NCBI GenBank assembly: GCA_902590435.1
Contig: CACIWU010000004.1
Coordinates: 1 to 53,924, forward strand
Source: an uncultured SAR324 cluster bacterium
Lineage (GTDB): Bacteria; SAR324; NAC60-12
Direction of reading: 5' to 3'
Length of the DNA: 53,924 nt
In this document: in pieces, positions 1 through 14,838 of the stretch
How the letters are laid out: each line of letters starts with the position of its first letter
Numbering within the stretch: the first letter of the stretch is position 1
The notes under the pieces: model-generated
Seen by the model: only the letters and a program-made list of their open reading frames with translations
Database searches by the model: none
What the model was told of the DNA's origin: nothing
Program-made: the position numbers and the translations under genes

Positions 1-1
1 A

Positions 2-505
2 GGTTATACCCTTTCAAAGGGTGACGCATACTGGACTTTTTCAGGAGGATTGGCTGGGATAATTGCAGCTTCTGCTGGAAACGATCTTTATCATCCACTT
101 CAGGCATTCCTAGTTGCTATTGTCGGAGTTATAATAGCCTACAAACTCCATTATTGGGTTGAACGCAAATTTAAGATTGATGATGCTGTTGGGGCTGTTG
201 CAGTCCACGGTTATGCTGGTTCTTTTGGTGTAATAATAGCTGGATTTTTACTATGGGGCTACCCCGCAGTAGCAGATGGATCTTCTACTATTAATCCGCT
301 TGGTCAAATTGGAGGAGCTATCATGATGTTTCTTGTCTTAGGATTTATTCCTGCATACATAGCTTCTAAAATTCTAAATGGTATCGGAGTATTACGGATT
401 CCAAAAGAGGTTGAATTAGCTGGACTAGATTATGTAGAAGATCAAGACTTAGAATCCGAAAGTAAGGAAATTATCAATGCCGAATTAGCCGAAGCGAATA
501 GCTAA
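2..505 (+). CDS. amt: Ammonium/methylammonium transporter (Amt family), 5'-truncated by the window edge
   Basis: The frame is open from position 2 (GYTLSKGDAYWTFSGGLAGIIAASAG...). Amt motifs are present (KIDDAVGAVAVHG, C-terminal LRIPKEVELAGLD), with multiple hydrophobic segments. Confidence 0.9.
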   Translation, partial: GYTLSKGDAYWTFSGGLAGIIAASAGNDLYHPLQAFLVAIVGVIIAYKLHYWVERKFKIDDAVGAVAVHGYAGSFGVIIAGFLLWGYPAVADGSSTINPLGQIGGAIMMFLVLGFIPAYIASKILNGIGVLRIPKEVELAGLDYVEDQDLESESKEIINAELAEANS

Positions 506-535
506 TTCTGTTACTAACTTTTAATGGAGAAATTT

Positions 536-751
536 ATGAGTACTGGACTAGAAAGCTGGAGTGCTGAATCTTTGGCGAAAATGGATGCTCTTTATCCTTT
601 TGTTGGTACAGAAGTATCTCTATCTATCATAGCTATTATCATATGGATCGGTTGGCACGTCTGGCAGATAAAGCATGAAAATAGCTCATTAGATGACCAA
701 ACTAGTAAATTGAAAGGTAATCTTTCAAAGGCTATCTCTGGTGATAAATAA
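536..751 (+). CDS. Small single-pass membrane protein downstream of amt
   Basis: GGAGA RBS precedes the ATG at 536 (the ORF track start at 524 is in frame). It has one TM segment (VSLSIIAIIIWIGWHVWQI) and is followed by a terminator hairpin. Confidence 0.7.
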   Translation: MSTGLESWSAESLAKMDALYPFVGTEVSLSIIAIIIWIGWHVWQIKHENSSLDDQTSKLKGNLSKAISGDK

Positions 752-761
752 TATTTAAATT

Positions 762-792
762 TACGTTGCCGCTGATTTTAAGCGGCAACGTA
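762..792. terminator. Probable bidirectional intrinsic terminator
   Basis: Perfect 12-bp stem TACGTTGCCGCT / AGCGGCAACGTA with a 7-nt loop, GC-rich in an AT-rich background, between convergent genes. Confidence 0.75.
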
Positions 793-865
793 TCGACCTT
801 GCCTTATTATTTAGAATTTTTCCTAAAATATTGTATAAAATTTCATGTACCAACGTATTTTATAA

Positions 866-2170
866 TTAAACATCGAGAGCGTTTGTGTGCTCCCATTCAG
901 TAAAATACTGCATGAAACTGTTCCATTCTTCCATTTTTAACTTAAAGTAAGAATCAGCAAACTCAATTCCAAGTATCTTTCGCAAATTTTTGTTTTTTTC
1001 AAATGATCTCAATGCATCAAGAAGATTCAAGGGAAGCCTAGGTGCATCTATCTTGTCTCCATCTTTGTACATATCAACATCAAGTCTTTTGCCAGGATCA
1101 ATTTTATTTTCAATACCCCACATTCCTGACCCAATAAGTGCTGCTTGAAGCAGATAGGGATTAACAGCACCATCAGCAAGTCTTACCTCAATACGATCTG
1201 AATCTGGAATTCGAATCATATGAGTCCGATTGTTACCTGAATAAGTAACTGTATTCGGAGACCAAGTTGCTCCTGAAGAAGTACGTGGAGCATTAATTCG
1301 CTTGTAACTATTTACAACTGGATTTGTAATCGCAGTCAAACTTTCAGCATTTTTTAGTAATCCTCCAATAAAATTGTAAGCAAGTTTAGAAAGCCCTAGT
1401 TCTCCATTTGCATCTTCCATTAAATTTGTTTTTCCATCGTTACTCCAAACAGAAATATGTGCATGACAACCGTTACCAGTTAAAGACGATAATGGTTTTG
1501 GCATAAAGGTTGCGCGAAATCCGTGCAATTCAGCAATAGTCTTCACCATGTATTTGAAGAATGTATGTCTATCTGCTGTTGTTAGTGCTTCAGAATAATT
1601 CCAATTCATTTCAAACTGTCCGTTTGCATCCTCATGATCGTTCTGATATGGCCCCCAGCCAAGTGTCTCCATGTGATCACAAATTTCTGCAATAAGATCA
1701 TATTTTCTCATAAGGGCTTGCTGATCATAACAAGGCTTTGTTTGAGAGTCAGTAGAATCAGCAATTGATTTACCATCTGGAGAAAGTAAAAAATATTCAC
1801 ATTCAACTCCAGAATTAATAACATATCCCTTTGTATTAGCACTTTGTAAAACTTTTTTGAGGATCGTTCTTGGTCCATGAGATACTATTTTTGTATCAAG
1901 ATATATATCACTAGGCAACCAACCCACTTCTTTATTCCATGGTAATTGAATCAGTCTTTCCGCATCAGGAAGACCAAACATATCTGAATCTGCAGGAGTC
2001 ATGTCAAGATGTGCTGCAAAGCCAGCAAACCCGGCTCCTTCTTTTTGCATTCCCGCTATTGCACTAGTTGGTACAAGCTTTGATCTAACAACTCCAAATA
2101 AGTCCGTAAAACTTATTAAAAAATAGCGGATATCTCTTTTCTTAGCTACCTCTTCAAGTCTAATATTCAT
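866..2170 (-). CDS. gmaS: Gamma-glutamylmethylamide synthetase (GlnT/type III glutamine-synthetase-like)
   Basis: Motifs YFLISFTDLFGVVRSKLVP, GAGFAGFA, GVECEYFL, KPCYDQQALMR, YQNDHEDANGQFEMNW, NGCHAH and SGATWSP. It lies next to amt and tdm. GGAGGAA-type RBS upstream. Confidence 0.85.
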   Translation of the reverse strand: MNIRLEEVAKKRDIRYFLISFTDLFGVVRSKLVPTSAIAGMQKEGAGFAGFAAHLDMTPADSDMFGLPDAERLIQLPWNKEVGWLPSDIYLDTKIVSHGPRTILKKVLQSANTKGYVINSGVECEYFLLSPDGKSIADSTDSQTKPCYDQQALMRKYDLIAEICDHMETLGWGPYQNDHEDANGQFEMNWNYSEALTTADRHTFFKYMVKTIAELHGFRATFMPKPLSSLTGNGCHAHISVWSNDGKTNLMEDANGELGLSKLAYNFIGGLLKNAESLTAITNPVVNSYKRINAPRTSSGATWSPNTVTYSGNNRTHMIRIPDSDRIEVRLADGAVNPYLLQAALIGSGMWGIENKIDPGKRLDVDMYKDGDKIDAPRLPLNLLDALRSFEKNKNLRKILGIEFADSYFKLKMEEWNSFMQYFTEWEHTNALDV

Positions 2171-2293
2171 TAGTTCCTCCTAAGTATTAAAATATATTTT
2201 CAAAAAGTATTATTTAACATGTAACAATATTTTTCATAGATTGTTATAAATCATCTTTAAAATGAAATACATAAAAAAAATTAATAATGTTAG

Positions 2294-2315
2294 GAGAAGA
2301 TATATACTTCTTCTC
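2294..2315. promoter_or_regulatory. Inverted repeat in the gmaS/tdm divergent intergenic region, possible operator
   Basis: GAGAAGA-N8-TCTTCTC, a perfect 7-bp palindrome. Confidence 0.25.
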
Positions 2316-2410
2316 TGAAAAAAGTAATAAAATTAAATTTATTGTCTTGAATTAAAAATTTTTGTAAATAATACTTACATTTTTCTTAACGCTTGGAAGA
2401 ACTGACGACT

Positions 2411-4762
2411 ATGGATCTCGCAAAAACAAGATCAACTTCTGGAATTTTGGAACCTGGTCTTTGGCAACATAAAAAGGGGACAGAGCGTTACCGTGTTCCT
2501 GCCTCCGGGATGATTTTAGTTGAGTTATACTCGGATGATGTAATAACAGTTAAAACTCCTGAAGGTGCTCAGATAGGAGAAATAATTCCCTTTACAGTCA
2601 ACGGAAACGGAGATCCAGCTCTTCTAGGTATAAACAAAACTTTACCCGCTAATGGATTAAAAGGAATTCTTGCTGGAAAATCTGAAAGTGCAATAAGAGT
2701 TCGCAATGTAATGGAAAAAATGAAACTTGATATCTCTACAGCTAAAGCCGCTTTAATTTTTTCGCCGGATTCTAAAGCCAATGAAGAGGTAAGTTATACT
2801 GCAACTTCTCAAACTTCATGTGCCATTACTGCACCAGGAATGATTATGGCAGTTGATGGAGAGAGTTTACCACCAACAGATCTAATAGTTTATGTTCAAA
2901 GAGCATCAATTCCAGAAGAAAATGAAATTGAGCTACCTGAACCACTTGCTGAACCGCGACTCGACTTCAGGATTGATCGTTGTACAGCTAAAGCATTTGA
3001 AGTAAAAGATGGTGAATTTATTCAGGTCATTGACGTAATGGGAAGGGAGTGTTCGGATTTTCAAGCATTTAATAGAAGACAATTAGATATTGGTATTGAA
3101 AGGAATATAGATGTTACAACAACCAGAACTCTTATGGGATCAGGCTATCCAAGTCCTGGTCTTTTTTCAAAATATTATGATGTAGATATGCAACCTCTTG
3201 TCGAAGTAATTCGTGATACTGTAGGAAGGCATGACACTTTTGGTTTGGCGTGTGCAGCAAAATACTACGAAGACATGGGATATTTTGGTCATATCAACTG
3301 CTCAGACAATTTTAATAATGCTCTTGCTCCTTTCAACGTTAAAGAACGCAAAGGGTGGGCTGCAGCAAATTTCTTCTTCAATACAGGTATCGACGAACAC
3401 AATGTTCTATATAGTGACGAACCATGGTCACGTCCTGGAGATTATGTTTTAATGCAGGCTCAAACTGACATAGTTTGTGTATCCTCAGCATGTCCAGACG
3501 ACACCAGTCCTGCAAATGGTTGGGTTCCAACAGATATTCACGTCCGGGTTTACCCGGCAAAAAATAATTTCACTAAAGCTATAACCACTAGAATGACTCC
3601 TGATTCCGAAGCTAAACTTACACAAGAGACCGGTTTTCACCCCAGGACATCGGCACTTACTAGAAACTATACTGAATATAGGGGGTACTGGCTGCCAACT
3701 TGTTATAGAAATAATGGTGCCATAGAAGAATATTTTGCATGTCGAGAAAAAGCCATTGTAACTGACCTTTCGCCACTCAGAAAATTTGAAATTTTAGGTC
3801 CAGATTCTGAAGCACTAATGCAATGGGTTCTAACTCGTAATGTTAGAAAATTAGCAATCGGACAAGTTGTTTATTCTTCCATGTGCTACCCTCATGGAGG
3901 GATGATGGACGATGGAACATTACTGAGACTGGGGCAAGATAATTTTCGATGGATTGGTGGCGATGATTATGGAGGGATTTGGATAAGGGAGCAAGCAGAA
4001 AAACTAGGTTTAAAAGTTTGGGTAAAATCATCAACTGATCAGATACATAATATAGCGGTTCAGGGACCAAAAAGCAGAGAAATTCTTAAGAAATTTGTTT
4101 GGACATCTCCAACTCAACCAAAATTGGAAGAGATAGGTTGGTTTAGATTCACACTTGGTAGAATTGGAGATCTAAATGGTAAACCAATAATGGTTTCTCG
4201 CACTGGTTATACTGGAGAATTAGGATATGAAATTTGGTGTCATCCGAAAGATGCTACGGAAGTGTGGGATATTGTTTTGGAAGAAGGTAAACCACATGGA
4301 ATTCTACCACTAGGCTTGGAAGCTTTGGATATGCTTCGAATTGAATCCGGACTTGTCTTTGCGGGCTATGAATTCAGCGATGAGATTGATCCGTACGAAT
4401 CAGGTGTTGGATTCACAGTCCCTCTAAAAACAAAGGAAGATGATTTTGTTGGACGAGATGCACTTGTAAAACGCAAGGAAAATCCTCAACGTAAACTCGT
4501 CGGCCTTGAACTAGAAGGGAATGAACAGAGTTCACATGGAGATTGTGTTCATGTTGGAAGGGGTCAAGTGGGAATAATTACTAGCGGTACGCGCTCTCCA
4601 ATTTTAAAAAAGAATATTGCTCTGTGCAGAATGGATGTTAATTATTCAGAAGTTGGTACAGAAGTTCAAATTGGTAAACTTGATGGACATCAAAAAAGAA
4701 TCCAGGCAGTAGTTGTTCCTTTCCCATTCTATGATCCAGAAAAACTCAAACCACGATCTTGA
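2411..4762 (+). CDS. tdm: Trimethylamine N-oxide demethylase (DUF1989 plus GcvT-like THF-binding domain)
   Basis: The DUF1989 region GRHDTFGLAC...GHINC...SSACPDD has C/H/C/C at offsets 0/+13/+16/+80, matching the recalled Methylocella Tdm metal ligands C263/H276/C279/C343. The C-terminal GcvT fold has DLSPLRKFE, SRTGYTGELGYE and LRIESG. ATG at 2411; in-frame TTG at 2393. Confidence 0.9.
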   Translation: MDLAKTRSTSGILEPGLWQHKKGTERYRVPASGMILVELYSDDVITVKTPEGAQIGEIIPFTVNGNGDPALLGINKTLPANGLKGILAGKSESAIRVRNVMEKMKLDISTAKAALIFSPDSKANEEVSYTATSQTSCAITAPGMIMAVDGESLPPTDLIVYVQRASIPEENEIELPEPLAEPRLDFRIDRCTAKAFEVKDGEFIQVIDVMGRECSDFQAFNRRQLDIGIERNIDVTTTRTLMGSGYPSPGLFSKYYDVDMQPLVEVIRDTVGRHDTFGLACAAKYYEDMGYFGHINCSDNFNNALAPFNVKERKGWAAANFFFNTGIDEHNVLYSDEPWSRPGDYVLMQAQTDIVCVSSACPDDTSPANGWVPTDIHVRVYPAKNNFTKAITTRMTPDSEAKLTQETGFHPRTSALTRNYTEYRGYWLPTCYRNNGAIEEYFACREKAIVTDLSPLRKFEILGPDSEALMQWVLTRNVRKLAIGQVVYSSMCYPHGGMMDDGTLLRLGQDNFRWIGGDDYGGIWIREQAEKLGLKVWVKSSTDQIHNIAVQGPKSREILKKFVWTSPTQPKLEEIGWFRFTLGRIGDLNGKPIMVSRTGYTGELGYEIWCHPKDATEVWDIVLEEGKPHGILPLGLEALDMLRIESGLVFAGYEFSDEIDPYESGVGFTVPLKTKEDDFVGRDALVKRKENPQRKLVGLELEGNEQSSHGDCVHVGRGQVGIITSGTRSPILKKNIALCRMDVNYSEVGTEVQIGKLDGHQKRIQAVVVPFPFYDPEKLKPRS

Positions 4763-4922
4763 CTTCTTATTTTTTTTAAGTTAGATTTGCAACCATTAAA
4801 AATTATAACATTATAAAAAATGAAAACAATAAAAACGGGCAAAATGTATTTTATTCTTTTAGCCCAATATTTCCAAATTTCATATGAAAAATCTTTCACA
4901 AAAAAAGAAATAATGAGGTAAC

Positions 4923-6389
4923 ATGACGGACTTAGAAGCATACGTTAGCGCAGATGGAAGGAATGAACTAGTAAAACAAGTTAGATCAAAAATAAATGAA
5001 CTTGGAATAACCTATATTTATTATCAATTTATTTCAGTTACAGGAAGAATAGTTGGTAAAGGTATTCCAGCTGATCACTGGGAAAGAACTGCAGAAAGGG
5101 GCTTCCAACTAGTCTATGGATCTACTGCAAATCTATTCATCGACCGACATGGAGATTACATTGGTTATGGTCCAGAAGCAATGGAGCTCGTCGGAATTCC
5201 TGATCCAGAAACATTCTGTCAATTACCATGGGATAAACGAGTTGCAAGAGTTTTTTGTGTTTGTTTTCGAAATCGTGAAGAAAGAGAGAATCCTGGCATG
5301 GCTTTAACATCTGATTGCAGGGGAAATCTCAAACGTTTCCACAAAGAATTCCAAGAAAAATACAATATGGATTTCAGAGTGGGAACAGAACCCGAAATGA
5401 TGTGGCTCAAAAAAGGTGAAGACGGAAAGCCGAATGGTGGTTTCTCTGAACCATATTGTTATCACATTGATCAGTTTGAATCTTTAAGGCCCGTTTTTAT
5501 GAAAGTAATCGAATACTGTAATGCAATGGGACTAGATATGATTCAAGGAGATCATGAGGACGCTCCAGGACAGCTAGAGTTAAATTGGACCTTCGATGAT
5601 GTAGTTCGAAATTCTGATAGACTATCTACTTATAGGCAAATATGTGCACAAGTAGCACGTGAAAACAATCTAATCGCCTGTTTTATGACTAAACCATTTA
5701 TGGGAGTTTCAGCATCGGGTTGCCATACGAATATTTCTCTTTGGAAGGGAGGAAGCCAATCAGTAAACAAACTTCACAACGATGTACTTCCTGGTATGGA
5801 GGATGTTTTTACTTACCGAAGTGGTGGAGAAAACACGTTTATGCCTGACACAGATGATCCACAAATGCCTGGTAAGATTGGCCTGCAATGTGTGGGTGGA
5901 ATAGTTAATCACTTGGGAGCTCTCACAGCTTTAGGTTGCTCAACTGTAAACTCATATAGACGTCTTTGGGACACAGGTTTCTGGGCACCTGTATTTGCAG
6001 ATTGGGGATATCAAAACCGAACAACAGGTCTTCGTATCTCAGCTCCTGGAAGATTTGAATATCGTGCAGTTGATTCAATGGTAAATCCATACTTGATGGG
6101 TGCAGCTCTTCTAAAGGCATTTGAAGATGGCATCGACAACAATATCGACCCTGGGAAACCTGAAAATCGTAACATTTATCAAGCAATGGAAGAAGGAAAA
6201 CAAGTCAAGAAACTACCTATGTCTTTGGGAGAAGCTCTTGATCGTCTCGCTAAAGATGAGGTCATTAAGTCTTCAATGCCCGATGAAATGTACAGAATTT
6301 TCCATTGGTACAAGAACGACGAATGGGAGCGGTTCATGCACACTACAACCGAATGGGATCTAGATACATATCTTGATTGTTTGCCCTAA
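4923..6389 (+). CDS. Glutamine-synthetase-like gamma-glutamyl:amine ligase (second, divergent paralog)
   Basis: GS catalytic motifs GTEPEM, DHEDAPGQLE, KPFMGVSASGCH, NSYRRL, NRTTGLRI and FEYRAVD. The glutamate flap reads GFWAP instead of GYEAP, so it is probably not a true GS. GAGGT RBS. Confidence 0.85.
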   Translation: MTDLEAYVSADGRNELVKQVRSKINELGITYIYYQFISVTGRIVGKGIPADHWERTAERGFQLVYGSTANLFIDRHGDYIGYGPEAMELVGIPDPETFCQLPWDKRVARVFCVCFRNREERENPGMALTSDCRGNLKRFHKEFQEKYNMDFRVGTEPEMMWLKKGEDGKPNGGFSEPYCYHIDQFESLRPVFMKVIEYCNAMGLDMIQGDHEDAPGQLELNWTFDDVVRNSDRLSTYRQICAQVARENNLIACFMTKPFMGVSASGCHTNISLWKGGSQSVNKLHNDVLPGMEDVFTYRSGGENTFMPDTDDPQMPGKIGLQCVGGIVNHLGALTALGCSTVNSYRRLWDTGFWAPVFADWGYQNRTTGLRISAPGRFEYRAVDSMVNPYLMGAALLKAFEDGIDNNIDPGKPENRNIYQAMEEGKQVKKLPMSLGEALDRLAKDEVIKSSMPDEMYRIFHWYKNDEWERFMHTTTEWDLDTYLDCLP

Positions 6390-6465
6390 ACGCTCTTTCA
6401 AAAAAATACTAGCAAATAAAAATTTTAAATGAAAAATATTTTTTTTAATTGAGGAGGAATTTTTT

Positions 6466-7401
6466 ATGTGTGGTATTGCAGGAATAATACACCGAGGGAA
6501 ACCTGGGAATATCGGTGGAGAAATAACCTCAATGCTCAGATCCTTGAAACACAGAGGACCAGATTCAACTGGATTAGCCGTGTATGGTATTCCGGATAAT
6601 AATCAATGTGTCATGCGATTTAAGGTTGCTGAACAGGAAGATGTTAGTAAGGGTTTCAATATCCATCAGGAAATTAAAGATCGACGTAAAGTTGTGAATA
6701 ACCGTCTTAAAGAGCTTGGTGTAAAAATATTATCTGAGGATGTAGCAACAGAATATGCTTTTCGATACACCTTAAGCTATGATGGAGATATGCATCATTT
6801 GGCAGATTACATTGAAGACATAGAAGGTACAGAAATTATGTCTTTAGGAAAAGCACTTGAATTAATTAAAGATTTAGGAGATGCGGATGTAGTTTCAGAT
6901 CAGTATGGTATTGCCAATTTCAAAGGTAGTCATGCTATCGGGCATACTCGTATGGCAACTGAGTCAGATGTTGATATTCGATCTGCTCATCCATATTGGG
7001 CATATCCTTTCAATGATGTGGCTGTCGTCCACAATGGACAGTTGACAAATTATTGGAACTGGAGAAGGAATCTAGAACACCGTGGCCATCGCTTCATGTC
7101 TAACTGCGATTCAGAGCTGATTGCTGTTTATTTAGCAGATAAAATGGATCAAAAGATTGAACTTATCGATGCCATGCATGACTCTTTAGATGAGCTTGAT
7201 GGTGTATTTACATATGTTGTAGCAACTTCTGATAAACTAGGAATGGCGAAAGATTATATGGCGGCAAAACCAATGGTTCTTCATGAATCTGATGATTTTG
7301 TTGCGCTCGCTTCAGAAGAAGTTGCCATTCGCAGCATATTTCCACATGAAATTGATACATTTGATCCATATGAAGGTGAGGTTAGAGTATGGGAACTATA
7401 G
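6466..7401 (+). CDS. Class II glutamine amidotransferase, GlxB/MgsA-like
   Basis: N-terminal MCGIAG nucleophile, HRGPDSTG, GHTRMATES, HNGQLTN and CDSE. GAGGAGG RBS. Confidence 0.85.
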   Translation: MCGIAGIIHRGKPGNIGGEITSMLRSLKHRGPDSTGLAVYGIPDNNQCVMRFKVAEQEDVSKGFNIHQEIKDRRKVVNNRLKELGVKILSEDVATEYAFRYTLSYDGDMHHLADYIEDIEGTEIMSLGKALELIKDLGDADVVSDQYGIANFKGSHAIGHTRMATESDVDIRSAHPYWAYPFNDVAVVHNGQLTNYWNWRRNLEHRGHRFMSNCDSELIAVYLADKMDQKIELIDAMHDSLDELDGVFTYVVATSDKLGMAKDYMAAKPMVLHESDDFVALASEEVAIRSIFPHEIDTFDPYEGEVRVWEL

Positions 7402-8228
7402 AAAAATCATTCGACGCTGGATTGCACACTGAACAACTTCGTGGAAGAACTCAGCAAACTTTTTTTTCATCAACCGAAGAAGAAAATTTTATTTATCCGT
7501 ACAATGGATTTGAAGTCGATATTGATAAAAAAACTGAATTTGATGCCCAAGATTTGGAAAGTTCAGAAATAAATCTAAAAATTCGTAGTCTAATGAAAGA
7601 AGGCTATGGACACATTGTCGTTAAAAATCCGCGAGCAAAACACTCAATTGGAGTTGGAATTCTCAACAGACTTTCGCTTGAATTCGAGGGTAGTCTCGGT
7701 TACTTCGGATGTGGTTTAGTTGACGGTCCAAATATTCATATTTCTGGAAGAGTTGGATGGTCATTTGGTGAAAACATGATGGCAGGGACTATCGTTGTAG
7801 AAAAGAACGCTGGATCAACATTTGGAGCTGCGATTCGTGGAGGTGATCTAGTTTGTAAAGGAGATGTAGGATCTAGAACGGGTATAGATATGAAAGGTGG
7901 TAACATTATAGTTGGTGGTCGAACAGGGACTCTATCAGGATTTATGATGCAGAGAGGCAGAATGATTGTCCTCGGAGATGCTGGTCCAAATTTGGGAGAT
8001 TCAATGTACGACGGTACAATATACATTGGGGGTAAAATTGATTCTTTAGGAGTAGATGCTGTTCAATCTGAAATTACGGATCTAGAAATAAAATGGATTG
8101 AACGTAAACTTTCTTTATATGGTCTAGAGGCACCAAATGGTGCTTCTAAATTACAAAAGATAGTAGCAGGAAAACAATTATGGAATTACGACAATCTTGA
8201 ACCTTCTGAAAAGAAGATTGTTCTATAG
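7389..8228 (+). CDS. GXGXG beta-helix protein (GltB C-terminal/FwdC-like), GlxC/MgsB-like, with an N-terminal extension
   Basis: Gly-rich repeats GENMMAG, GAAIRGG, GIDMKGG, GFMMQRG and GDSMYDG. It overlaps the upstream gene by 13 nt. Confidence 0.85.
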   Translation: MGTIEKSFDAGLHTEQLRGRTQQTFFSSTEEENFIYPYNGFEVDIDKKTEFDAQDLESSEINLKIRSLMKEGYGHIVVKNPRAKHSIGVGILNRLSLEFEGSLGYFGCGLVDGPNIHISGRVGWSFGENMMAGTIVVEKNAGSTFGAAIRGGDLVCKGDVGSRTGIDMKGGNIIVGGRTGTLSGFMMQRGRMIVLGDAGPNLGDSMYDGTIYIGGKIDSLGVDAVQSEITDLEIKWIERKLSLYGLEAPNGASKLQKIVAGKQLWNYDNLEPSEKKIVL

Positions 8229-8279
8229 GTTGAAAAATTATTTTTAATCATACACTTTAATTTAAATTAAAAGAACACT

Positions 8280-9611
8280 ATGGCAAGGAATAAATCAGTA
8301 TTGGGGAAGAGTTTCATTTTTCAGCCAGAGGTAATAGATGATATCCATATTAAGGCTGAACTAGGAAGATATAGAATGAGAGGTATGTCTTTGTTTAAAA
8401 ACATCCCGACATGGGATGATCTCACTTTTTTACCAGGAACTCTCACTAGATTTGTAATTGAAGGTTATCGAGAAAAATGCTTAACTAAGACTGTTATTGG
8501 TCCAAAAGCTAAAAGACCTTTGGAATTAGACATTCCAATATATATTACTGGAATGAGCTTTGGTGCGTTGAGCTATGAAGCTAAAACTGCACTGGCTAGA
8601 GGAGCAACAATGGCAGGTACAGCAACCTGTTCCGGTGAAGGAGGTATGATTCCAGATGAACGAAGATATTCATCAAAATGGCTATACCAATGTATACAGT
8701 CCAGATATGGATTTAATCCTCATCATCTAAGACTTGCAGATGCCTGCGAATTCTTTATTGGACAAGGATGTAAGGTTGGTCTGGGCGGTCACTTAATGGG
8801 ACAAAAAGTAACAGATCAAGTTGCAGAAATGCGTTCACTTCCAGCAGGGATAGATCAAAGATCTCCTGCCCGACACCCGGACTGGTTAGGACCTGATGAT
8901 CTAGCCTTAAAAATTCAAGAAATAAGAGAAGCAACAGACTGTCAGATTCCTATCCAGCTAAAACTTGGTGCTGCTCGCGTATACGACGACGTTCGCATGG
9001 CTTTAAAAACAAATCCGGATAGTATATATATTGATGGAATGGAGGGGTCTACTGGTGCAGGACCTCATCTCGCCACAGAAGAAACAGGAGTACCTGGAAT
9101 TGCTGCTATAAGACAAGCTCGTAAGGCATTCGACGATTTAGGCTACACTGGGAAAGTTTCTCTAGTTTATGCAGGGGGGATTCGTAATGGTGCTGATGTA
9201 GCAAAAGCTCTTGCATTAGGGGCAGACGCCATAGCAATTGGTCATTCTGCCATGATGGCACTTAATTGTAACAAAGACATACCTGAAGCAGACTACCAAG
9301 AGGAAATGGGAGTAGATGCTGGAGATTGTTATCATTGTCATACTGGTCGTTGTCCAGTTGGAGTTGCAACTCAGGATCCTGAATTAAGGAAAAGGCTTAA
9401 TCCTGATGAAGCTGCAGAACGTGTTTACAATTTTCTTCACTGTCTGACAATTGAATGTCAAATGATGGCTAGAGCTTGCGGGAAAACTAATGTTCATTCC
9501 TTAGAACCGGAAGACTTAGCCGCTCTAACAATGGAAGCTTCCGCTTTAGCCCAAGTACCATTAGCTGGATCACAACACACAGTAGGAAGACCAGATATGA
9601 ATCGCTACTAA
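8280..9611 (+). CDS. FMN-binding glutamate-synthase-family protein, GlxD/MgsC-like, retaining an Fe-S Cys motif
   Basis: Motifs GMSFGALS, SGEGG, GQGCKVGLGG, RSPARHPD, IDGMEGSTG, GGIRNGADVAKALALGAD and CYHCHTGRCPVGVATQD. Confidence 0.88.
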   Translation: MARNKSVLGKSFIFQPEVIDDIHIKAELGRYRMRGMSLFKNIPTWDDLTFLPGTLTRFVIEGYREKCLTKTVIGPKAKRPLELDIPIYITGMSFGALSYEAKTALARGATMAGTATCSGEGGMIPDERRYSSKWLYQCIQSRYGFNPHHLRLADACEFFIGQGCKVGLGGHLMGQKVTDQVAEMRSLPAGIDQRSPARHPDWLGPDDLALKIQEIREATDCQIPIQLKLGAARVYDDVRMALKTNPDSIYIDGMEGSTGAGPHLATEETGVPGIAAIRQARKAFDDLGYTGKVSLVYAGGIRNGADVAKALALGADAIAIGHSAMMALNCNKDIPEADYQEEMGVDAGDCYHCHTGRCPVGVATQDPELRKRLNPDEAAERVYNFLHCLTIECQMMARACGKTNVHSLEPEDLAALTMEASALAQVPLAGSQHTVGRPDMNRY

Positions 9612-9691
9612 GTAATTCAGAAATATTAAAAAATAGATCTTTTATTTTTTTTTAATCTTAATACTTAAAAAACATTTAGATTTTAATTAAT

Positions 9692-10072
9692 ATGACTACA
9701 AAAAACGATGAACTAGTTCCAGAAGATTTAGGAACAGAAAGAGAAAAAGAAATTGGTCAGCATATTGGTTATAGATATGATGTAAATCTTGTACCTGACT
9801 ATGAGCGTCTTACTCCTTTTCTCAAGAAATATATTGAAACGATGGGATGGGAAGACCTTAACTGGTTAGAGGATGTCCATATGGGTTACGAGGAGGATCG
9901 TGCAGCTGTATTTGATCGTAATATCAACGGATGGGTAACTGTCCCAGAAGAAATGGCATTGCCAGACAATCAACAGGATCGTGATATGATTGCCCGTGAA
10001 TTATTGATCAAGTTTCAAATGTCAAAACGACATCCTATGGTACTGCTCGAAGAAACTTATGGAAAATTTTGA
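9692..10072 (+). CDS. Uncharacterised acidic 126-aa protein closing the tdm-ligase-glxBCD-like run
   Basis: Clean ORF, co-directional, with composition like the upstream cluster. I recognise no family motif. Confidence 0.75.
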   Translation: MTTKNDELVPEDLGTEREKEIGQHIGYRYDVNLVPDYERLTPFLKKYIETMGWEDLNWLEDVHMGYEEDRAAVFDRNINGWVTVPEEMALPDNQQDRDMIARELLIKFQMSKRHPMVLLEETYGKF

Positions 10073-10127
10073 AAAAGATCTTATTATTCTTTTTCTTGAT
10101 GCTTGATTTTTTATATTTTATAGCATC

Positions 10128-10418
10128 TTAATCTGAAAGTGGCGTAATTCCTGACAGTAATTTCTTTCTTACTTTTTTTACTTTATTAGATTTTGTAATG
10201 GATTTAAATCCATCAGGTTTCTCGATTGCACTATTATCAGGTCCTACATTTTTTTTATTTTCTACTTTATTATTTAAACTTTTGTCATAATCAAATATCG
10301 ATTCTAAATCATAATCTATTTGAAAATTTTCTAGATTTGATATACCTTCCTCCTGTTTTTTGCATGAAACAAATAGGCAAGAGGAACTTATGATTAAAAT
10401 TAAAAGTTTATTTTTCAG
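10128..10418 (-). CDS. Putative small lipoprotein with a CTG start (absent from the ORF track)
   Basis: Manual translation gives (M)KNKLLILIISSSCLFVSC KKQEEG...GITPLSD*, 96 aa. It has a basic N-terminus, a hydrophobic core and the lipobox FVSC. AAGGA lies 4 nt upstream of the CTG. It fills an otherwise empty gap. Confidence 0.55.
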   Translation of the reverse strand: MKNKLLILIISSSCLFVSCKKQEEGISNLENFQIDYDLESIFDYDKSLNNKVENKKNVGPDNSAIEKPDGFKSITKSNKVKKVRKKLLSGITPLSD

Positions 10419-10474
10419 AAATTCCTTAATAATGCTTCTTTATTAGCAACACATCATACTCTAATTCTTTTCTC

Positions 10475-10693
10475 TTAACTCTTTCTGAAAGAATAATGTT
10501 GAATCATACTAGATTTTTCATTCATCATTCCTCTTTCAAAAGCTATTTCCAACAATCGATTATGGATTTTCCTTTTATCCAAAAAATTTTTAACCCACCA
10601 ACTTATTAATCCTATAGAGCACAAAACAACAAATAGGATTGTAAAAAATTGAGAAGAAAAGATTGAGAGATACGCTCCGATAGTACTTTCCAT
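10475..10693 (-). CDS. Small membrane protein
   Basis: AGGAGG RBS upstream of the ATG; one long TM segment. Confidence 0.65.
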   Translation of the reverse strand: MESTIGAYLSIFSSQFFTILFVVLCSIGLISWWVKNFLDKRKIHNRLLEIAFERGMMNEKSSMIQHYSFRKS

Positions 10694-10791
10694 TGAGAAC
10701 CTCCTATGTTTTCTAATTGAAAGTTTCTAGCAGTATAATTATTCTAATATACACCGTTTTTAAAAAATTAAAACATTATTTTATGAATACT

Positions 10792-11628
10792 TTAAAATCC
10801 AAATGGTTTGTCATTATTTAGACTCGGAATTCTAATCCTCGTCATATTAACCTCTTCTAGATTAATATTTACATTTATAAAACCTGGACTAGTCCCTCCA
10901 TCAGCAAGAATCTCTCCCCAAGGATTAATGATCAATGAATGACCATAACATTCACCACCTCCTTCTATTTTTCCTATAGAACATGGCGCTATAACAAAAG
11001 CCCCATTTTCTATTGCACGCGCTCTGTTAAGTACGTGCCAATGAGCCTTACCAGTTTTTTTTGTAAAAGCTGCAGGTACAAACAAAATTTCTGCCCCCTT
11101 TTTTGATAACTCACGAAAAAGATTAGGAAATCTCAAATCATAGCAAATTGTATGTCCTATACAGCCCCAAGATGTCTTTGAAATAACTGCTTTATTACCA
11201 CCATGTACAGTTTTACTTTCTAAATATGATTCTCTTTCTGATAATTTTATATCAAAAAGATGAATTTTGTCATATCTGCTAATGATGCTACCATAGTCAT
11301 CAATAATGTAGCTTCGATTCAATATTTTTTCATCTGGACCGCTTATTGCGATAGAACCAATAAGAATGAACTTCTTTTTATTTCTTGCAAATTCTTTTAG
11401 ACCCTTCAAAACTGGATGTGATTCTTCGGGACTAAAAGGAGGTGAAAAAGAATAACCTTCTGTTTTCAATCCTCCACAATATTCAGGAAGGGTTAGCATA
11501 TCTGCACCAGCCTCAATTGCATTTTCTGCATGACATATTGCTTCATCAAGAGAGGACTTAAAATTAGCTTTTGGACTTATTTGAAGGCAAGCAACATTAA
11601 ACTGTCTTTTGTAATTTTTTTTTCTCAC
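10792..11628 (-). CDS. Carbon-nitrogen hydrolase (Nit1/deaminated-glutathione amidase-like)
   Basis: E-K-C triad motifs LPEY, YDKIHLFD and ICYDLRFP, plus PAAFTKKTGKAHW, RARAIENG and YGHSLIINPWG. Confidence 0.9.
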   Translation of the reverse strand: MRKKNYKRQFNVACLQISPKANFKSSLDEAICHAENAIEAGADMLTLPEYCGGLKTEGYSFSPPFSPEESHPVLKGLKEFARNKKKFILIGSIAISGPDEKILNRSYIIDDYGSIISRYDKIHLFDIKLSERESYLESKTVHGGNKAVISKTSWGCIGHTICYDLRFPNLFRELSKKGAEILFVPAAFTKKTGKAHWHVLNRARAIENGAFVIAPCSIGKIEGGGECYGHSLIINPWGEILADGGTSPGFINVNINLEEVNMTRIRIPSLNNDKPFGF

Positions 11629-11719
11629 ATTAACTTTATAGAAAAAATCTACCGTCTATTTAAATATTTTACATAATTTTTTTGAATTTTGAGCACAAAA
11701 AATTTACTTTTGCTTTTTT

Positions 11720-12451
11720 TTATTCATGAAAAACTCCTTTAATATAATTACCAACTATTTTTCCAAATTTGTTGTATTCTTTACCTTCCCAAAAACCTCC
11801 CTCTTTGAAAATGCCAACCAACTTTCTACCATCATTCCAATTATAAGTGCCTTTACCATTGAAAAAACCATCTTTGTATTCTCCATTATAGTTAATTCCA
11901 TCAGGAGATGTAAATTTTCCAAACCCATTTTTTTCTCCATTTTTCCAACCTCCTTCATATTTCCAACTATTGTGCTTAATATATATTCCTTGACCATTTC
12001 TTTTTCCATTTTTAAATTCTCCTTCATATGTACTGCCATCCGGCCAGGTATATACTCCATTAAAATGTTTTTTCCCATCCTTCCATTCACCTTCATAATT
12101 TCCTCCATCAGAATATCTCCTCTTTCCATTACCATTTTCTTCATCATTTTTCCAACCTCCTTCATAGGTACTACCATCTAAGAATGTGAATACACCCTTA
12201 CCATAAAATTTACCATCTTTCCATTCTCCAACATATTTTTCACCTATAGGCGTCGTTAATATTCCTAGTCCGTTTGGTTTACCATTATCAACATCTCCTT
12301 TAAATAATGGTTGAGATTCAATGTCTCCAAATCCTTTCCACTCGATTCCAGAAGTTGTATCCCATTTAAATAATATTTCTCCTTCGAAACAATTTACTAT
12401 GTGTGGAAAAAACAAAAATATGAATAAGATTATAATTTTATTATTTTTCAA
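11720..12451 (-). CDS. Secreted MORN-repeat protein
   Basis: Signal-peptide-like N-terminus and about 7-8 tandem 23-aa YEGEWKDGK.NG.G repeats. Confidence 0.85.
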   Translation of the reverse strand: MKNNKIIILFIFLFFPHIVNCFEGEILFKWDTTSGIEWKGFGDIESQPLFKGDVDNGKPNGLGILTTPIGEKYVGEWKDGKFYGKGVFTFLDGSTYEGGWKNDEENGNGKRRYSDGGNYEGEWKDGKKHFNGVYTWPDGSTYEGEFKNGKRNGQGIYIKHNSWKYEGGWKNGEKNGFGKFTSPDGINYNGEYKDGFFNGKGTYNWNDGRKLVGIFKEGGFWEGKEYNKFGKIVGNYIKGVFHE

Positions 12452-12538
12452 ATTTTATCCTTATTAAGGATTGAAATGAACTATATTTTGGAAGGTTTTG
12501 TTGATTATTTGGGAAAACTTTTAAAATTAATAAATTTT

Positions 12539-12697
12539 TTACACTTTTTCCCTCCTAAAATTTTTCTCTTTCCCAACATCCCTTATTGATGCAGCTAAAA
12601 CGAACCAAAAAAAACGAATTCTATTCAAAAAACCTTTTTTTTTGGAAAGTTCATCAAATTTTTCTATTCCACATGTTGTTCTAATATTATTTTTCAT
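12539..12697 (-). CDS. Possible 52-aa small protein (below the ORF-track cutoff)
   Basis: MKNNIRTTCGIEKFDELSKKKGFLNRIRFFWFVLAASIRDVGKEKNFRREKV. It starts 12 nt after the upstream gene's stop, on the same strand. Confidence 0.45.
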   Translation of the reverse strand: MKNNIRTTCGIEKFDELSKKKGFLNRIRFFWFVLAASIRDVGKEKNFRREKV

Positions 12698-12709
12698 TCT
12701 CAAAATAAA

Positions 12710-13303
12710 TCAATAATTTATCTCTGGAATTGCAATTGAATTGGACCAATCTGGACGAAAAATTAATACTCGTGATTCTGGAGATATACTAGGATTAAAA
12801 AGGAGGTTGTGCCAATAAGTAAATTGATAACCTATATCCTCATTTTTTAATTCATCCACAAAACAACAAATTTTAAATGATTGCTTCTGGTAGTCAAAAT
12901 TTAGTAAAATTTTTTTTTCGTTTAAAATATGTGTTGCTGTTATAGAATTTTTTGGGAAAAGTCCTGTCATCAATCCTTCAAAATCTGCATTATGTTGAAA
13001 AAATGTTGATGAAAGAATCTCGATTACTTTTTTGTACCTTTCATTAGGATCATTAGTTTTTTTAGCTATAAATCGGAACTGTAATACACTTTCAAGTGGG
13101 TTTTTGGGTACTAAAAGTAATATAACCGAAGAATTTAATTCTTTATCGTTTGCACTCAGGACTCGAGGACAAATCCCAAGTGATGGACGCCCATTATTAT
13201 TTCTCAAAGAATATTCCCTTATACGGCACTGCCAACCAATAAAGTGCCTCTGAATATTTAAATTACTATAACTAGAATCACTTTCTTTTGATTCTGATTT
13301 CAT
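12710..13303 (-). CDS. Hypothetical protein
   Basis: 197-aa ORF directly downstream of the flavoprotein, with motif-like segments FIGWQCRIR and TYWHNLLFNP. Confidence 0.7.
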   Translation of the reverse strand: MKSESKESDSSYSNLNIQRHFIGWQCRIREYSLRNNNGRPSLGICPRVLSANDKELNSSVILLLVPKNPLESVLQFRFIAKKTNDPNERYKKVIEILSSTFFQHNADFEGLMTGLFPKNSITATHILNEKKILLNFDYQKQSFKICCFVDELKNEDIGYQFTYWHNLLFNPSISPESRVLIFRPDWSNSIAIPEINY

Positions 13304-13350
13304 AAAGTATAATTAGTTGAACCTGTTTAAAAATTATAGATGATAATTCT

Positions 13351-14682
13351 TCAACTCCATGGGAAAGGACTATTTGAAACCGGATGTAAATTACCTTTCT
13401 CAAAACGATTAAATCGAAAAGGATCTAATAACGTACTTGATTCACCCATTATTTCTTTAGAAACTAGTTTACCAACTCCTATCATTTTCCAACCATGATT
13501 TGAGTCTGCTATCACATAACAGTTTTCATGAAAAACATCAAAAACGGGAAAACTATCAGGAGCTAATGCACCGAGTCCTCCCGAGGGTTTTTCTCTGTAA
13601 AGGTTTCTACTACCTTCAAATCGTTTTTGACAGAAAGCTAATGCAGAACACCACATATCTACAAATTTTTTACCAACTACAAAGTCTGGAGATTCCGTAC
13701 CGTAAGGATCTACACTAAAATCTTCTCCTGTATTATCAACATTATAAGGTGCTGATCCACCTTGAATCCCATCAAAACTGAAATCTGGTTTATAATATAT
13801 ACCCCACATTTTATCTGTTATTAAATTACCATTCGTATCTGAGTAAAGTGGTACATCAGAATCAACATGGACAACTGGAGGCATTTTACCTTCATTTGTT
13901 TTTAGCATGTTTGGATCAACACCCAAAGTTCCTTCCTGTAAACAGTAATATCGCCACATTTCCACATCTTCAAAATATTTTTCGCCATCCTTAATTCTAA
14001 TCTTGCGCGGTAGGTTTAAAATTTTCCAAAAATTATTTATCCATGGACCTACACCGACTACTAAGTAATCTATTTTTATTTCTCCTATATTTGTAATTAC
14101 TTTAGAAATAGATTTTCCTGAATATTCAACTCCCAATACTTCCACATTGCCAATAATTAAAACTCCCTCACTTTCTGCTTTAGCTGCAAGACCCTCTAAA
14201 CACTTCCTGTTATTAGAGTAACCACCCTTTTTCTCATGCAGAACCGATGTTATCCCTTTCGCATGCCAATCATCGAAAATACCTCGCATATAACTCATTG
14301 AATCTTCACTACCCTCTATAAACTCAGAAGGATAGCCAATGGCTTTTTGTTGTTCATAAATCGAAGATACATCAGAACGCATAACTTCTGGACTAATTTG
14401 CATGTAACCAACAGGATGATAACTATAATTTTTGGGATCACTTTCCCATACCTCCACACTATGTGCCATCAATTCGCGCATAGCTGGTTGGAAATAATTA
14501 TTTCTAACCACACCGCAAGCAATTCCTGAAGCACCCGCTCCAATACCAGATTTGTCAATTACAATTATATCTTTTCCGCTTCCAAGCCCACGATTTTTTA
14601 ATTCTAGTGAAAGATGATATGCGGTACTAAGGCCATGAATTCCTGAACCAACAATTAGGTACTTTGTAGTACTAGGTAACAT
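13351..14682 (-). CDS. FAD-dependent amine oxidoreductase (DAO family, sarcosine oxidase beta/MgdA-like)
   Basis: Rossmann motif IVGSGIHGLSTAYHL, GAGASGIACGVVRNNY, PDSFPV and DSNHGWKMIGVG. Confidence 0.85.
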   Translation of the reverse strand: MLPSTTKYLIVGSGIHGLSTAYHLSLELKNRGLGSGKDIIVIDKSGIGAGASGIACGVVRNNYFQPAMRELMAHSVEVWESDPKNYSYHPVGYMQISPEVMRSDVSSIYEQQKAIGYPSEFIEGSEDSMSYMRGIFDDWHAKGITSVLHEKKGGYSNNRKCLEGLAAKAESEGVLIIGNVEVLGVEYSGKSISKVITNIGEIKIDYLVVGVGPWINNFWKILNLPRKIRIKDGEKYFEDVEMWRYYCLQEGTLGVDPNMLKTNEGKMPPVVHVDSDVPLYSDTNGNLITDKMWGIYYKPDFSFDGIQGGSAPYNVDNTGEDFSVDPYGTESPDFVVGKKFVDMWCSALAFCQKRFEGSRNLYREKPSGGLGALAPDSFPVFDVFHENCYVIADSNHGWKMIGVGKLVSKEIMGESSTLLDPFRFNRFEKGNLHPVSNSPFPWS

Positions 14683-14838
14683 ATTTTTTTCTCAAAAAAA
14701 CAGTTTTTTAAAAATATAAATAACAAGATTTATAAACAGAATTAATTTTCAATTATCGTTCCAAAAAATGCAAGATACATTAGTTATGGACATAGAAAAA
14801 TAATTAAATTTTTCATGATATAAAAAAAATAATCAAAT

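Follow-up and report, generated by a model that had tools for sequence, protein, structure and literature searches.

A conserved ligase and split-synthase block behind tdm in SAR324 and SAR11 bacteria as a candidate gamma-glutamyl route for a small alkylamine, possibly dimethylamine

What becomes of the dimethylamine (DMA) that the demethylase Tdm makes from trimethylamine N-oxide (TMAO)? Since 2013-2017 its fate in SAR11 and other abundant bacterioplankton has been called unknown, according to the passages on this point in Smith 2013, Lidbury 2017 and Gao 2022, and this gap lies behind the view that DMA builds up and is lost to the atmosphere, where it would be a precursor of aerosols. A passage of Lidbury 2017 (PMC5520151) reports that dmmDABC is absent from all SAR11 representatives and proposes a DMA bottleneck, the DMA pathway in Pelagibacter is described as “in question” in the part of Smith 2013 (PMC3870248) that treats it, and strain HTCC1062 grows on TMAO as sole nitrogen source in the experiments described in Gao 2022. 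The question is raised anew by a 53,924-nucleotide contig of an uncultured SAR324 cluster bacterium (CACIWU010000004.1 of assembly GCA_902590435.1), the whole of which is called the window below. Here tdm is followed by a gene block that encodes a glutamine-synthetase (GS)-like ligase (lig2), a glutamate synthase-like enzyme in three parts (gatA, gxgB and fmnC) and a small conserved protein (u126). The comparisons presented here suggest that lig2 and the split synthase, together with a flavoprotein of the DAO family or an Mgd-type enzyme, probably constitute a gamma-glutamyl route for a small alkylamine, with DMA as the leading but tentative candidate. The block fits the gap in that it is conserved, evolves very slowly, is gained and lost with tdm in SAR11, occurs in carriers without Dmm and has the right predicted chemistry. 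This narrows the open DMA question to named genes that can be assayed, SAR11_1304-1309 of HTCC1062 and their orthologues in the window.

The window is one contig (C4) of a 1.51-Mb assembly in 106 contigs that is 54% complete, and absences from this genome are therefore weak evidence. Its 44 open reading frames (ORFs) were scanned with Pfam and NCBIfam profiles, and the order gmaS (-), tdm (+), lig2, gatA, gxgB, fmnC, u126 followed from the ORF calls and both profile sets. An earlier reading of the contig from its letters alone, here called the sequence-only reading, had described tdm, a 488-aa ligase, three synthase genes and a 126-aa gene with gmaS on the opposite strand, and the ORFs and domains agree with it in every gene. 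Its statement that the window lacks dmm, tmm and a DMA dehydrogenase also stands, as none of the 44 scanned ORFs is an FMO/Tmm, HODM/DmmA or DMA-dehydrogenase-like gene, an mgd gene or part of a sarcosine-oxidase-type operon. The features are as follows.

2411..4762, + strand: tdm, TMAO demethylase (DUF1989 + GcvT), NF053776 1198.9 bits against a cut-off of 1100; the start codon is the ATG at 2411, with an alternative TTG at 2393
4923..6389, + strand: lig2, 488-aa GS-fold ligase, matches Gln-synt_C only, orthologue of SAR11_1305
6466..7401, + strand: gatA, class-II (Ntn) glutamine amidotransferase, PF13522/PF13537, starts MCGI
7389..8228, + strand: gxgB, GXGXG-motif subunit of the GltB C-terminal domain type, PF01493 2e-18
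8280..9611, + strand: fmnC, FMN glutamate-synthase-domain subunit, PF01645 3.2e-90
9692..10072, + strand: u126, conserved 126-aa protein, no Pfam or NCBIfam family even at E<=1
866..2170, - strand: gmaS, canonical gamma-glutamylmethylamide synthetase, 434 aa, TIGR03105 621.9 bits against a cut-off of 469.6, PDB 7cql (RhGmaS) E 3.7e-177, in the GmaS clade
13351..14682, - strand: DAO-family FAD amine oxidoreductase, PF01266, orthologue of SAR11_1304 (“monomeric sarcosine oxidase”)
12710..13303, - strand: u197, 197-aa ORF, no Pfam match, possibly associated with the module
2..505, + strand: 3' end of an Amt-family ammonium/methylammonium transporter gene (amt), PF00909 2.3e-20, truncated by the contig start and convergent with gmaS

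The ligase lig2 is 25.6% identical to the GmaS of the window and scores below the NCBIfam cut-offs of all three related families, with 296 bits in two stretches against 469.6 on the GmaS profile (TIGR03105), 242 against 429 on the GlnA profile (TIGR00653) and 213.5 against 650 on the PuuA profile (NF045547). Its top PDB sequence matches are archaeal and Gram-positive GS (8ool, 9.2e-56). The identities of the GS homologues in all fetched loci to lig2 are bimodal, with 81 proteins at 70-100%, 64 at 20-39% and none between. In a quick IQ-TREE phylogeny of 24 sequences, the careful search for which is unfinished, lig2 and its orthologues form a clade of 13 rows (SH-aLRT 99) on a stem of 2.74 with internal branches of 0.02-0.16. 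The GmaS clade (5 rows, SH-aLRT 99), E. coli PuuA, the GlnA of the same genome and three other GS-like ligases all fall outside this clade.

The catalytic residues tell a second story, in which lig2 resembles GmaS. The roles assigned to Asp177, Glu186, Arg312, the flap Trp and the proposed pocket of RhGmaS are taken from the passages on these residues in Wang 2021 (PMC7948447). In RhGmaS numbering, the motif QGDHED of lig2 aligns with QNDHED of GmaS, so that the equivalent of Asp177 is kept, and lig2 also contains Glu186 of GQxE, Asn188, Tyr147, Lys30', Arg312 and both Arg of NRTxxxR. The full set of motifs is QGDHED...GQLELN, CYH, a conserved Lys in GKGIP, GFWAP and QNRTTGLRI. The flap reads GFWAP in lig2, TWSP in GmaS and GFEAP in the GlnA of the same genome (contig C23), such that Trp replaces the flap Glu of GS; this GlnA also has an HHE motif where lig2 has DHED. 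Among the ligases compared, QxDHED is confined to lig2 and GmaS, the flap Trp occurs in the three other GS-like ligases as well, and the combined signature is departed from by E. coli PuuA, GlnA and these three. In the four lig2 sequences shown, Gly replaces Asn176, Ile replaces Tyr174 and Leu replaces Phe185. The ligase also has two insertions, one of 24 aa following SLWKGG and one of about 10-15 residues around the position of the Asp50' loop of GS; the latter and the three substitutions might enlarge the amine pocket. Its nearest full-length representatives in a library of 1.84 billion representatives are 61%, 51%, 49% and 41-43% identical, and only the first of these shares the 24-aa insertion; relatives with a name (from Streptomyces and a Sulfitobacter metagenome-assembled genome, MAG) are annotated “glutamine synthetase family protein” only. 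On its motifs and phylogeny, lig2 is probably a gamma-glutamyl-alkylamide synthetase with GmaS-type chemistry that stands outside the GmaS family.

A third GS-like ligase is encoded in the same genome (G000, contig C86; L002:1-2244). It is about 32-40% identical to lig2 over the C-terminal half, depending on the aligner, and has a VTWAP flap. The gene is cut by the contig end, and genes for an alpha/beta hydrolase and an EutQ-like cupin come after it. The ligase probably belongs to another gamma-glutamylation route.

The genes gatA, gxgB and fmnC (6466-9611) overlap or are closely spaced in the three-gene arrangement of MgsABC, and gatA keeps the catalytic Cys1. Compared with the set linked to gmaS, the synthase subunits are 29-54% identical: gatA is 29-32% identical to the gmaS-linked copy in the same SAR11 loci, and fmnC is 51-54% identical to the gmaS-linked MgsC of 14 loci. 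In the phylogeny of FMN subunits, where the gmaS-linked MgsC reference is of the SAR11_1313-1315 type and characterised MgsC sequences are not included, the fmnC clade is the sister of the gmaS-linked MgsC clade (SH-aLRT 99 for each and 92 for the join). The fused MgsBC type, GltB and a 527-aa paralogue on contig C3 fall outside both. The sequence-only reading had set the module apart from the known system for monomethylamine (MMA), and it is upheld by both trees, with lig2 outside the GmaS clade and fmnC beside rather than within gmaS-linked MgsC.

Four Cys residues are invariant in fmnC (C330, C350, C353 and C358), and three of them align with Cys residues in the FMN domain of GltB, which we take to be the ligands of the 3Fe-4S cluster. 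The aligned Cys residues are missing from the gmaS-linked MgsC of two loci (L023 and L014) and kept in that of a third (L018). The two synthase types may differ in whether they take electrons from an outside partner. Another type of synthase, a fused GXGXG and FMN glutamate-synthase protein of 650-660 aa that is 39% identical to fmnC, was seen in two loci (L013:2694-4646 and L092:754-2736, both on the - strand); this protein, from Arenicellales-type genomes, represents a third Mgs-like lineage outside the module and gmaS-linked clades.

The protein u126 is 67-85% identical to its orthologues, with a mean column identity of 77%. Its gene always follows fmnC and is present only where the second synthase set is present, being absent from two loci (L012 and L014) that have lig2 without this set. 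An AlphaFold2 model from a 12-row alignment had a mean pLDDT of 55.9, too low for folds to be compared, a protein-atlas search returned unnamed clusters only (best score 0.86), and the predicted complex of fmnC and u126 scored 0.04 against a mark of 0.32, which counts neither for nor against a contact. From its gene position, u126 may be a fourth synthase subunit. Fusions of the two proteins were considered, since 16 of the 42 matches of u126 to longer homologues carry PF01645, with fmnC and then u126 in one frame. They were rejected as read-through into the neighbouring gene: all are singleton clusters, and the linker in the printed example (P0124) looks frameshifted.

How far does the block extend beyond this contig? 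The locus scan covered one genome per GTDB species and yielded 599 stretches, 595 of them confirmed relatives, of which 80 were kept. In these 80 loci lig2 is 78-93% identical over its full length. By title, 68 are Pelagibacter/Pelagibacteraceae and 12 are gammaproteobacterial or unclassified MAGs, with Arenicellales, Granulosicoccaceae and Acidiferrobacteraceae among the non-SAR11 loci. A search of 5.8 billion proteins added many SAR324-named proteins that are about 81% identical to lig2. Where the locus leaves room, gatA-gxgB-fmnC-u126 lies directly downstream of lig2 in 62/62 SAR11-titled and 6/7 other loci. A DAO gene lies immediately upstream of lig2 in 65/65 SAR11-titled and 4/12 other loci, and tdm lies within 5 kb upstream in 54/58 and 4/11, respectively.

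The order in SAR11 is a divergent gene for an OpuAC-type binding protein, tdm, a 116-aa ORF, dao, lig2, gatA, gxgB, fmnC, u126 and amt, followed by an optional second Mgs-type set and then gmaS; amt also adjoins the module in several gammaproteobacterial loci. In HTCC1062 the orthologues of lig2, fmnC and u126 are about 79-80%, 80% and 76% identical to those of the window and the order from lig2 to u126 is the same; by this orthology and gene order the window block is the counterpart of SAR11_1304-1309. The two arrangements differ in that SAR11 has the DAO gene and the 116-aa ORF between tdm and lig2, and amt and gmaS after u126, whereas in the window tdm abuts lig2, gmaS is divergent upstream and the DAO gene lies 3 kb downstream on the other strand. 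The DAO gene of the window is nevertheless orthologous to the lig2-linked DAO genes of other loci. Its PDB relatives are distant only (sarcosine oxidase beta 1.4e-12, DMG oxidase 7.5e-5). Homologues of u197 at 33-49% identity adjoin the module in four loci (L008, L010, L015 and L069). The sequence-only reading had ended the module with u126 at position 10,072; the genes that it named all belong, and its limits are too narrow because the DAO gene and possibly u197 travel with the module elsewhere. Judged from these loci, the block exceeds that interval, is spread over far more genomes than one contig could show, and is a GmaS/Mgs variant outside the characterised clades.

The system that it most resembles is the GmaS/MgsABC/MgdABCD pathway of Methylocella silvestris, Methyloversatilis universalis and Ruegeria pomeroyi (structure 7cql). 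Both have the same parts list, catalytic Asp, Glu and Arg with a flap Trp, and the same genomic company of gmaS, amt and mgd-type genes. The module differs in the insertions and separate clade of lig2, in synthase subunits from a sister clade, in the additional 126-aa protein, and in a single linked DAO flavoprotein in place of the four-subunit Mgd. The Puu pathway of E. coli follows the same logic, as PuuA is a GS-fold ligase that makes a gamma-glutamyl amide and PuuB a linked DAO-family flavoprotein. However, PuuA lacks QxDHED (its motif is AVAEA) and has a flap Tyr, the DAO of the module matches PuuB at the FAD motif only, and the module has no PuuC/PuuD-type genes.

To relate the block to tdm and dmm we used 64 genomes of the order of the window and 151 genomes of the SAR11 order, the latter requested at a completeness of at least 90%. 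Tdm was called at E<=1e-100, DmmA as PF11927, and GmaS above the TIGR03105 cut-off. In the order of the window lig2 occurs in 11/64 genomes and tdm in 12/64. Ten genomes have both, and in all ten, that is in 10/11 lig2 carriers, tdm is directly upstream of lig2 on the same contig and strand. The 11 carriers include copies with in-frame stops (G039), split (G034) or partial (G035). The first two represent a decaying lig2 in the genus of the window (G039:C2:169312-170776 and G034:C128:22653-24274), and tdm carries stops in two SAR11 genomes with an intact lig2 (G111 and G170).

In the SAR11 order lig2 was found in 105/151 genomes, tdm in 104/151 and GmaS in 113/151. The genes tdm and lig2 occur together in 102 genomes and are both missing from 44; three genomes have only lig2 and two only tdm. 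An fmnC orthologue is nevertheless present in four of these five discordant genomes, near a contig start in two (G215 and G226), and we suspect that the discordant genomes reflect assembly gaps. GmaS accompanies 102/105 of the lig2 carriers, lig2 occurs without GmaS in three genomes (G106, G203 and G205), and gmaS occurs without lig2 in 11, of which 10 also lack tdm. Exclusion of one unpublished genome that is positive for lig2, tdm and gmaS (G152) gives counts of 104, 103, 112 and, for DmmA, 0 of 150, and no claim depends on it. Eight genomes have a lone GmaS, with no tdm, no lig2 and no Mgs-type FMN subunit of either kind (G090, G098, G100, G102, G108, G110, G112 and G225).

The sequence-only reading had proposed a comparison with dmmABC, and the carriers in these samples lack DmmA with one exception. 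DmmA was found in 0/151 genomes of the SAR11 order, in 0/17 of the genus of the window, and in 1/11 lig2 carriers of its order (G063, which also has tdm). The genome of the window itself gave no match to PF11927 at its 54% completeness. The search works, as 13/64 genomes of the order (genera g8, g10 and g11) have DmmA-like genes. Twelve genomes of this order (G050-G052, G054-G061 and G064) have a DmmA/HODM-like gene and no tdm at the threshold used; the substrate of their enzymes may be DMA from outside the cell or a different N-methyl compound.

In the proposed pathway, lig2 would be an ATP-dependent ligase in which the Asp of QxDHED deprotonates an alkylammonium ion, with the flap Trp in place of the flap Glu of GS, and its product would be a gamma-glutamyl-alkylamide. 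The products of gatA, gxgB and fmnC, probably with u126, would form a split GOGAT-like enzyme: the Ntn-Cys amidotransferase would free the amine from the amide and pass it to the FMN subunit, which would join it to 2-oxoglutarate as an N-alkylglutamate. Removal of N-methyl groups as formaldehyde would then fall to the linked DAO flavoprotein. With DMA, from Tdm or from seawater, the intermediates would be gamma-glutamyl-dimethylamide, N,N-dimethylglutamate and N-methylglutamate, and the route would stand in for the Dmm monooxygenase that the carriers lack. DmmDABC (Ruegeria pomeroyi; HODM family) shares only this proposed role of DMA removal after Tdm; there is no homology, and Dmm depends on O2 and NAD(P)H, with free MMA as its product. 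If the DMA route is real, the marine “DMA bottleneck” is a gap in annotation rather than in metabolism. It is conceivable, though we hold it with reservation, that lig2 is the first GS-family enzyme specialised on a secondary amine, and that together with the GOGAT-like enzyme and the DAO it closes the DMA gap in SAR11, SAR324 and the abundant gammaproteobacteria of the sea.

We tentatively favour DMA as the substrate because the placement behind tdm recurs in two distant lineages, and because the block is gained and lost with tdm as a unit while gmaS varies independently. The carriers lack Dmm, and one of them demonstrably takes nitrogen from TMAO. Streamlined genomes retain two very different ligases. 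The chemistry is, by our own reasoning, feasible, since the GmaS mechanism takes away two protons, exactly as many as a secondary ammonium ion carries, and the iminium formed with 2-oxoglutarate would be reducible like an imine.

A considerable body of evidence weighs on the other side. The residues that make up the methylamine pocket of RhGmaS in the proposal of Wang et al. are all kept in lig2, which favours MMA or another amine. We know of no GS-family enzyme specialised on a secondary amine, and this missing precedent points the same way. For RhGmaS itself, Km values of 27 uM for MMA and 16 mM for DMA are given in the relevant part of Wang 2021 (PMC7948447). The ties to Tdm are also looser than the counts suggest: since tdm and lig2 lie close together and relatedness makes the genomes non-independent, the counts overstate functional coupling. 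Moreover, Tdm at E<=1e-100 was found in none of five further non-SAR11 carriers (G082-G086, corresponding to L008, L010, L011, L013 and L014, of unstated completeness), and the module therefore does not depend on Tdm. DmmA is likewise found in 0/5 of these carriers, and GmaS above the cut-off in 3/5, G082 and G085 being without it. The link to tdm claimed by the sequence-only reading thus holds for adjacency in the order of the window (10/11) and co-variation in SAR11, and fails in 5/5 of the further carriers.

The synthase partner raises similar difficulties. In L012 and L014 the genes after lig2 are of the soxBDAG type (mgdABCD-like), the second synthase set and u126 are missing, and in L014 mgsABC and gmaS come next. 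In such loci lig2 sits inside an ordinary mgd-mgs-gmaS cluster, which again favours MMA or another amine. A second MgsC-type gene was found in only 12/56 SAR11-titled loci with gmaS in view, with none in the other 44/56. In the complete SAR11 genomes G001-G003 the GXGXG proteins are GltB and the gxgB of the module only. On this evidence the second set is the sole Mgs-like enzyme in most SAR11, and it may serve both ligases or simply work as an N-methylglutamate synthase. For the genome of the window, a second mgsABC set linked to gmaS was found neither in the window nor in the assembly, which is 54% complete. Two genomes of the same genus (G025 and G028) have a second GXGXG gene just downstream of gmaS, so that both systems flank tdm, and the gmaS of the window instead runs into the convergent amt. 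The premise of the sequence-only reading that gmaS already covers MMA therefore remains an assumption for this genome. Finally, the proteomics of nitrogen-limited HTCC1062, as given in a passage of Smith 2013 (PMC3870248), show SAR11_1304 as the second most induced protein, and SAR11_1305 and SAR11_1308 at 0.67 and 0.66, a slight fall and not an induction.

The DMA hypothesis has mostly survived the refutation tests set by the sequence-only reading, in the separation of clades, the link to tdm and the lack of DmmA, but the counter-evidence from the pocket residues, L012/L014 and nitrogen limitation is real, the substrate is inferred only, and DMA is not established.

Of the alternatives, a second self-contained MMA route survives best, and we consider it a serious though unproven possibility. 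The ligase lig2 would make gamma-glutamylmethylamide, the second set N-methylglutamate, and the DAO would be a monomeric N-methylglutamate oxidase, with GmaS and its own MgsABC as a parallel system, perhaps for imported methylammonium. This route would account for the intact methylamine pocket, for amt as a neighbour in many loci, and for most SAR11 keeping the second synthase set only. It would also explain the module without tdm, or without GmaS above the cut-off (G082, G085, G106, G203 and G205), and the mgdABCD genes that adjoin lig2 in L010, L012 and L014. However, streamlined SAR11 keep both ligases (102/105), which are about 26-28% identical, and this speaks against simple redundancy; the block comes and goes with tdm while gmaS is found alone. 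As it stands, the route leaves DMA use by HTCC1062 unexplained. A variant, covered by the same estimate, removes this objection by letting the DAO first demethylate free DMA to MMA, and the SAR11 order of tdm, 116-aa ORF, dao, lig2 and synthase set would then mirror the pathway. Against the variant, DAO-family enzymes usually act on N-substituted amino acids and not on free small amines.

Less likely again is another small amine, such as ethylamine, ethanolamine, hydroxylamine or an aminoalcohol, with tdm as a neighbour in a general island for organic-amine nitrogen. GS-like ligases do multiply in such islands, as in L014 and with the third ligase of the window's genome on C86, Streptomyces and other taxa have relatives of lig2 that are 41-51% identical, and the module is present in genomes without tdm. 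It is harder to reconcile with the tight tdm adjacency in two distant lineages, with a context that always consists of methylamine and C1 genes (gmaS, mgs, mgd, amt, tdm and the TmoX-type OpuAC protein), and with a catalytic motif that lig2 has in common only with GmaS among the ligases compared. The islands can be elaborate: in the gammaproteobacterial L014:4469-21106, one mgdABCD-like set and one mgsABC set are surrounded by four GS-like ligases, namely proteins of 531 and 449 aa, lig2 and GmaS, an arrangement that looks like several amine-specific ligases feeding one downstream pathway.

That lig2 is a true GS and the three genes a split glutamate synthase, forming an alternative ammonia-assimilating GS-GOGAT pair, is very improbable, for although the GS fold, all three GltB-type domains, the archaeal and Gram-positive PDB matches, the GltB-aligned Cys columns of fmnC and the SAR11 annotations glnT and gltB2 recall GlnA and GltBD, the flap Glu and HHE have given way to Trp and DHED, the GlnA profile score is 242 against 429 bits, the same genomes hold an ordinary GlnA and a 1500-aa GltB, the enzyme would be divided into three or four small proteins without a GltD-like partner, and GlnA, unlike SAR11_1305, is induced by nitrogen limitation in the passage of Smith 2013 (PMC3870248) on this treatment.

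Even with MMA or some other amine as its substrate, the block would be an uncharacterised and globally abundant module for nitrogen acquisition. The sequence-only reading had called the pathway undescribed. This is right for its function, to which the passages on these SAR11 genes assign nothing, and too strong for the genes, which have long been known. In the passages of Sun 2011 and Smith 2013 that list them, SAR11_1303 is tagged as an aminomethyltransferase, SAR11_1304 as a “monomeric sarcosine oxidase” (sox), SAR11_1305 as “glnT”, SAR11_1308 as “gltB2”, SAR11_1310 as amt and SAR11_1316 as glnT, which is gmaS. Sun 2011 proposes, in the passage concerned, that SAR11_1313-1315 (glxBCD) is an N-methylglutamate synthase (NMGS), as the best match of the M. 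universalis NMGS. In the literature searched to November 2026, no paper gives by title or abstract a function for SAR11_1304-1309 or this DMA route, and among the papers listed for gamma-glutamyl-dimethylamide, dimethylglutamine or dimethylglutamate none is microbial by its title.

The surroundings of the block in the window provide little more. The remaining 31 scanned ORFs are housekeeping genes, and no Rfam family matched across the whole window. Promoter and terminator scans of positions 1-15000 gave hits at the level of shuffled sequence (56 against 56.3 and 8 against 9.3, respectively), and operon boundaries are not readable from them. Four marine metatranscriptome runs from four studies contained short pieces of the contig, a few of them mismatch-free (for example 4971-5298, 6409-6653, 6701-7000 and 8313-8614). 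None of the pieces bridges two genes and DNA carry-over is possible, so they indicate presence only, with no co-transcription shown. The GC content falls at the end of the module, at 10 kb, from 0.37-0.39 in positions 1-10000 to about 0.30 from 10001 onward. Recent horizontal transfer was considered as the cause and rejected: GC3 of the module genes (0.23-0.29) is barely above that of the rest of the window (0.16-0.28), and since it is nearly equal on both sides, the step mostly reflects amino-acid composition. The CN-hydrolase gene at 10792-11628 was rejected as a member of the module, as a homologue was found in 0/80 loci. MORN-repeat proteins are present in many copies in this small genome, one in the window at 11720-12451 on the - strand and others on contigs C57, C20, C69, C29, C35 and C22.

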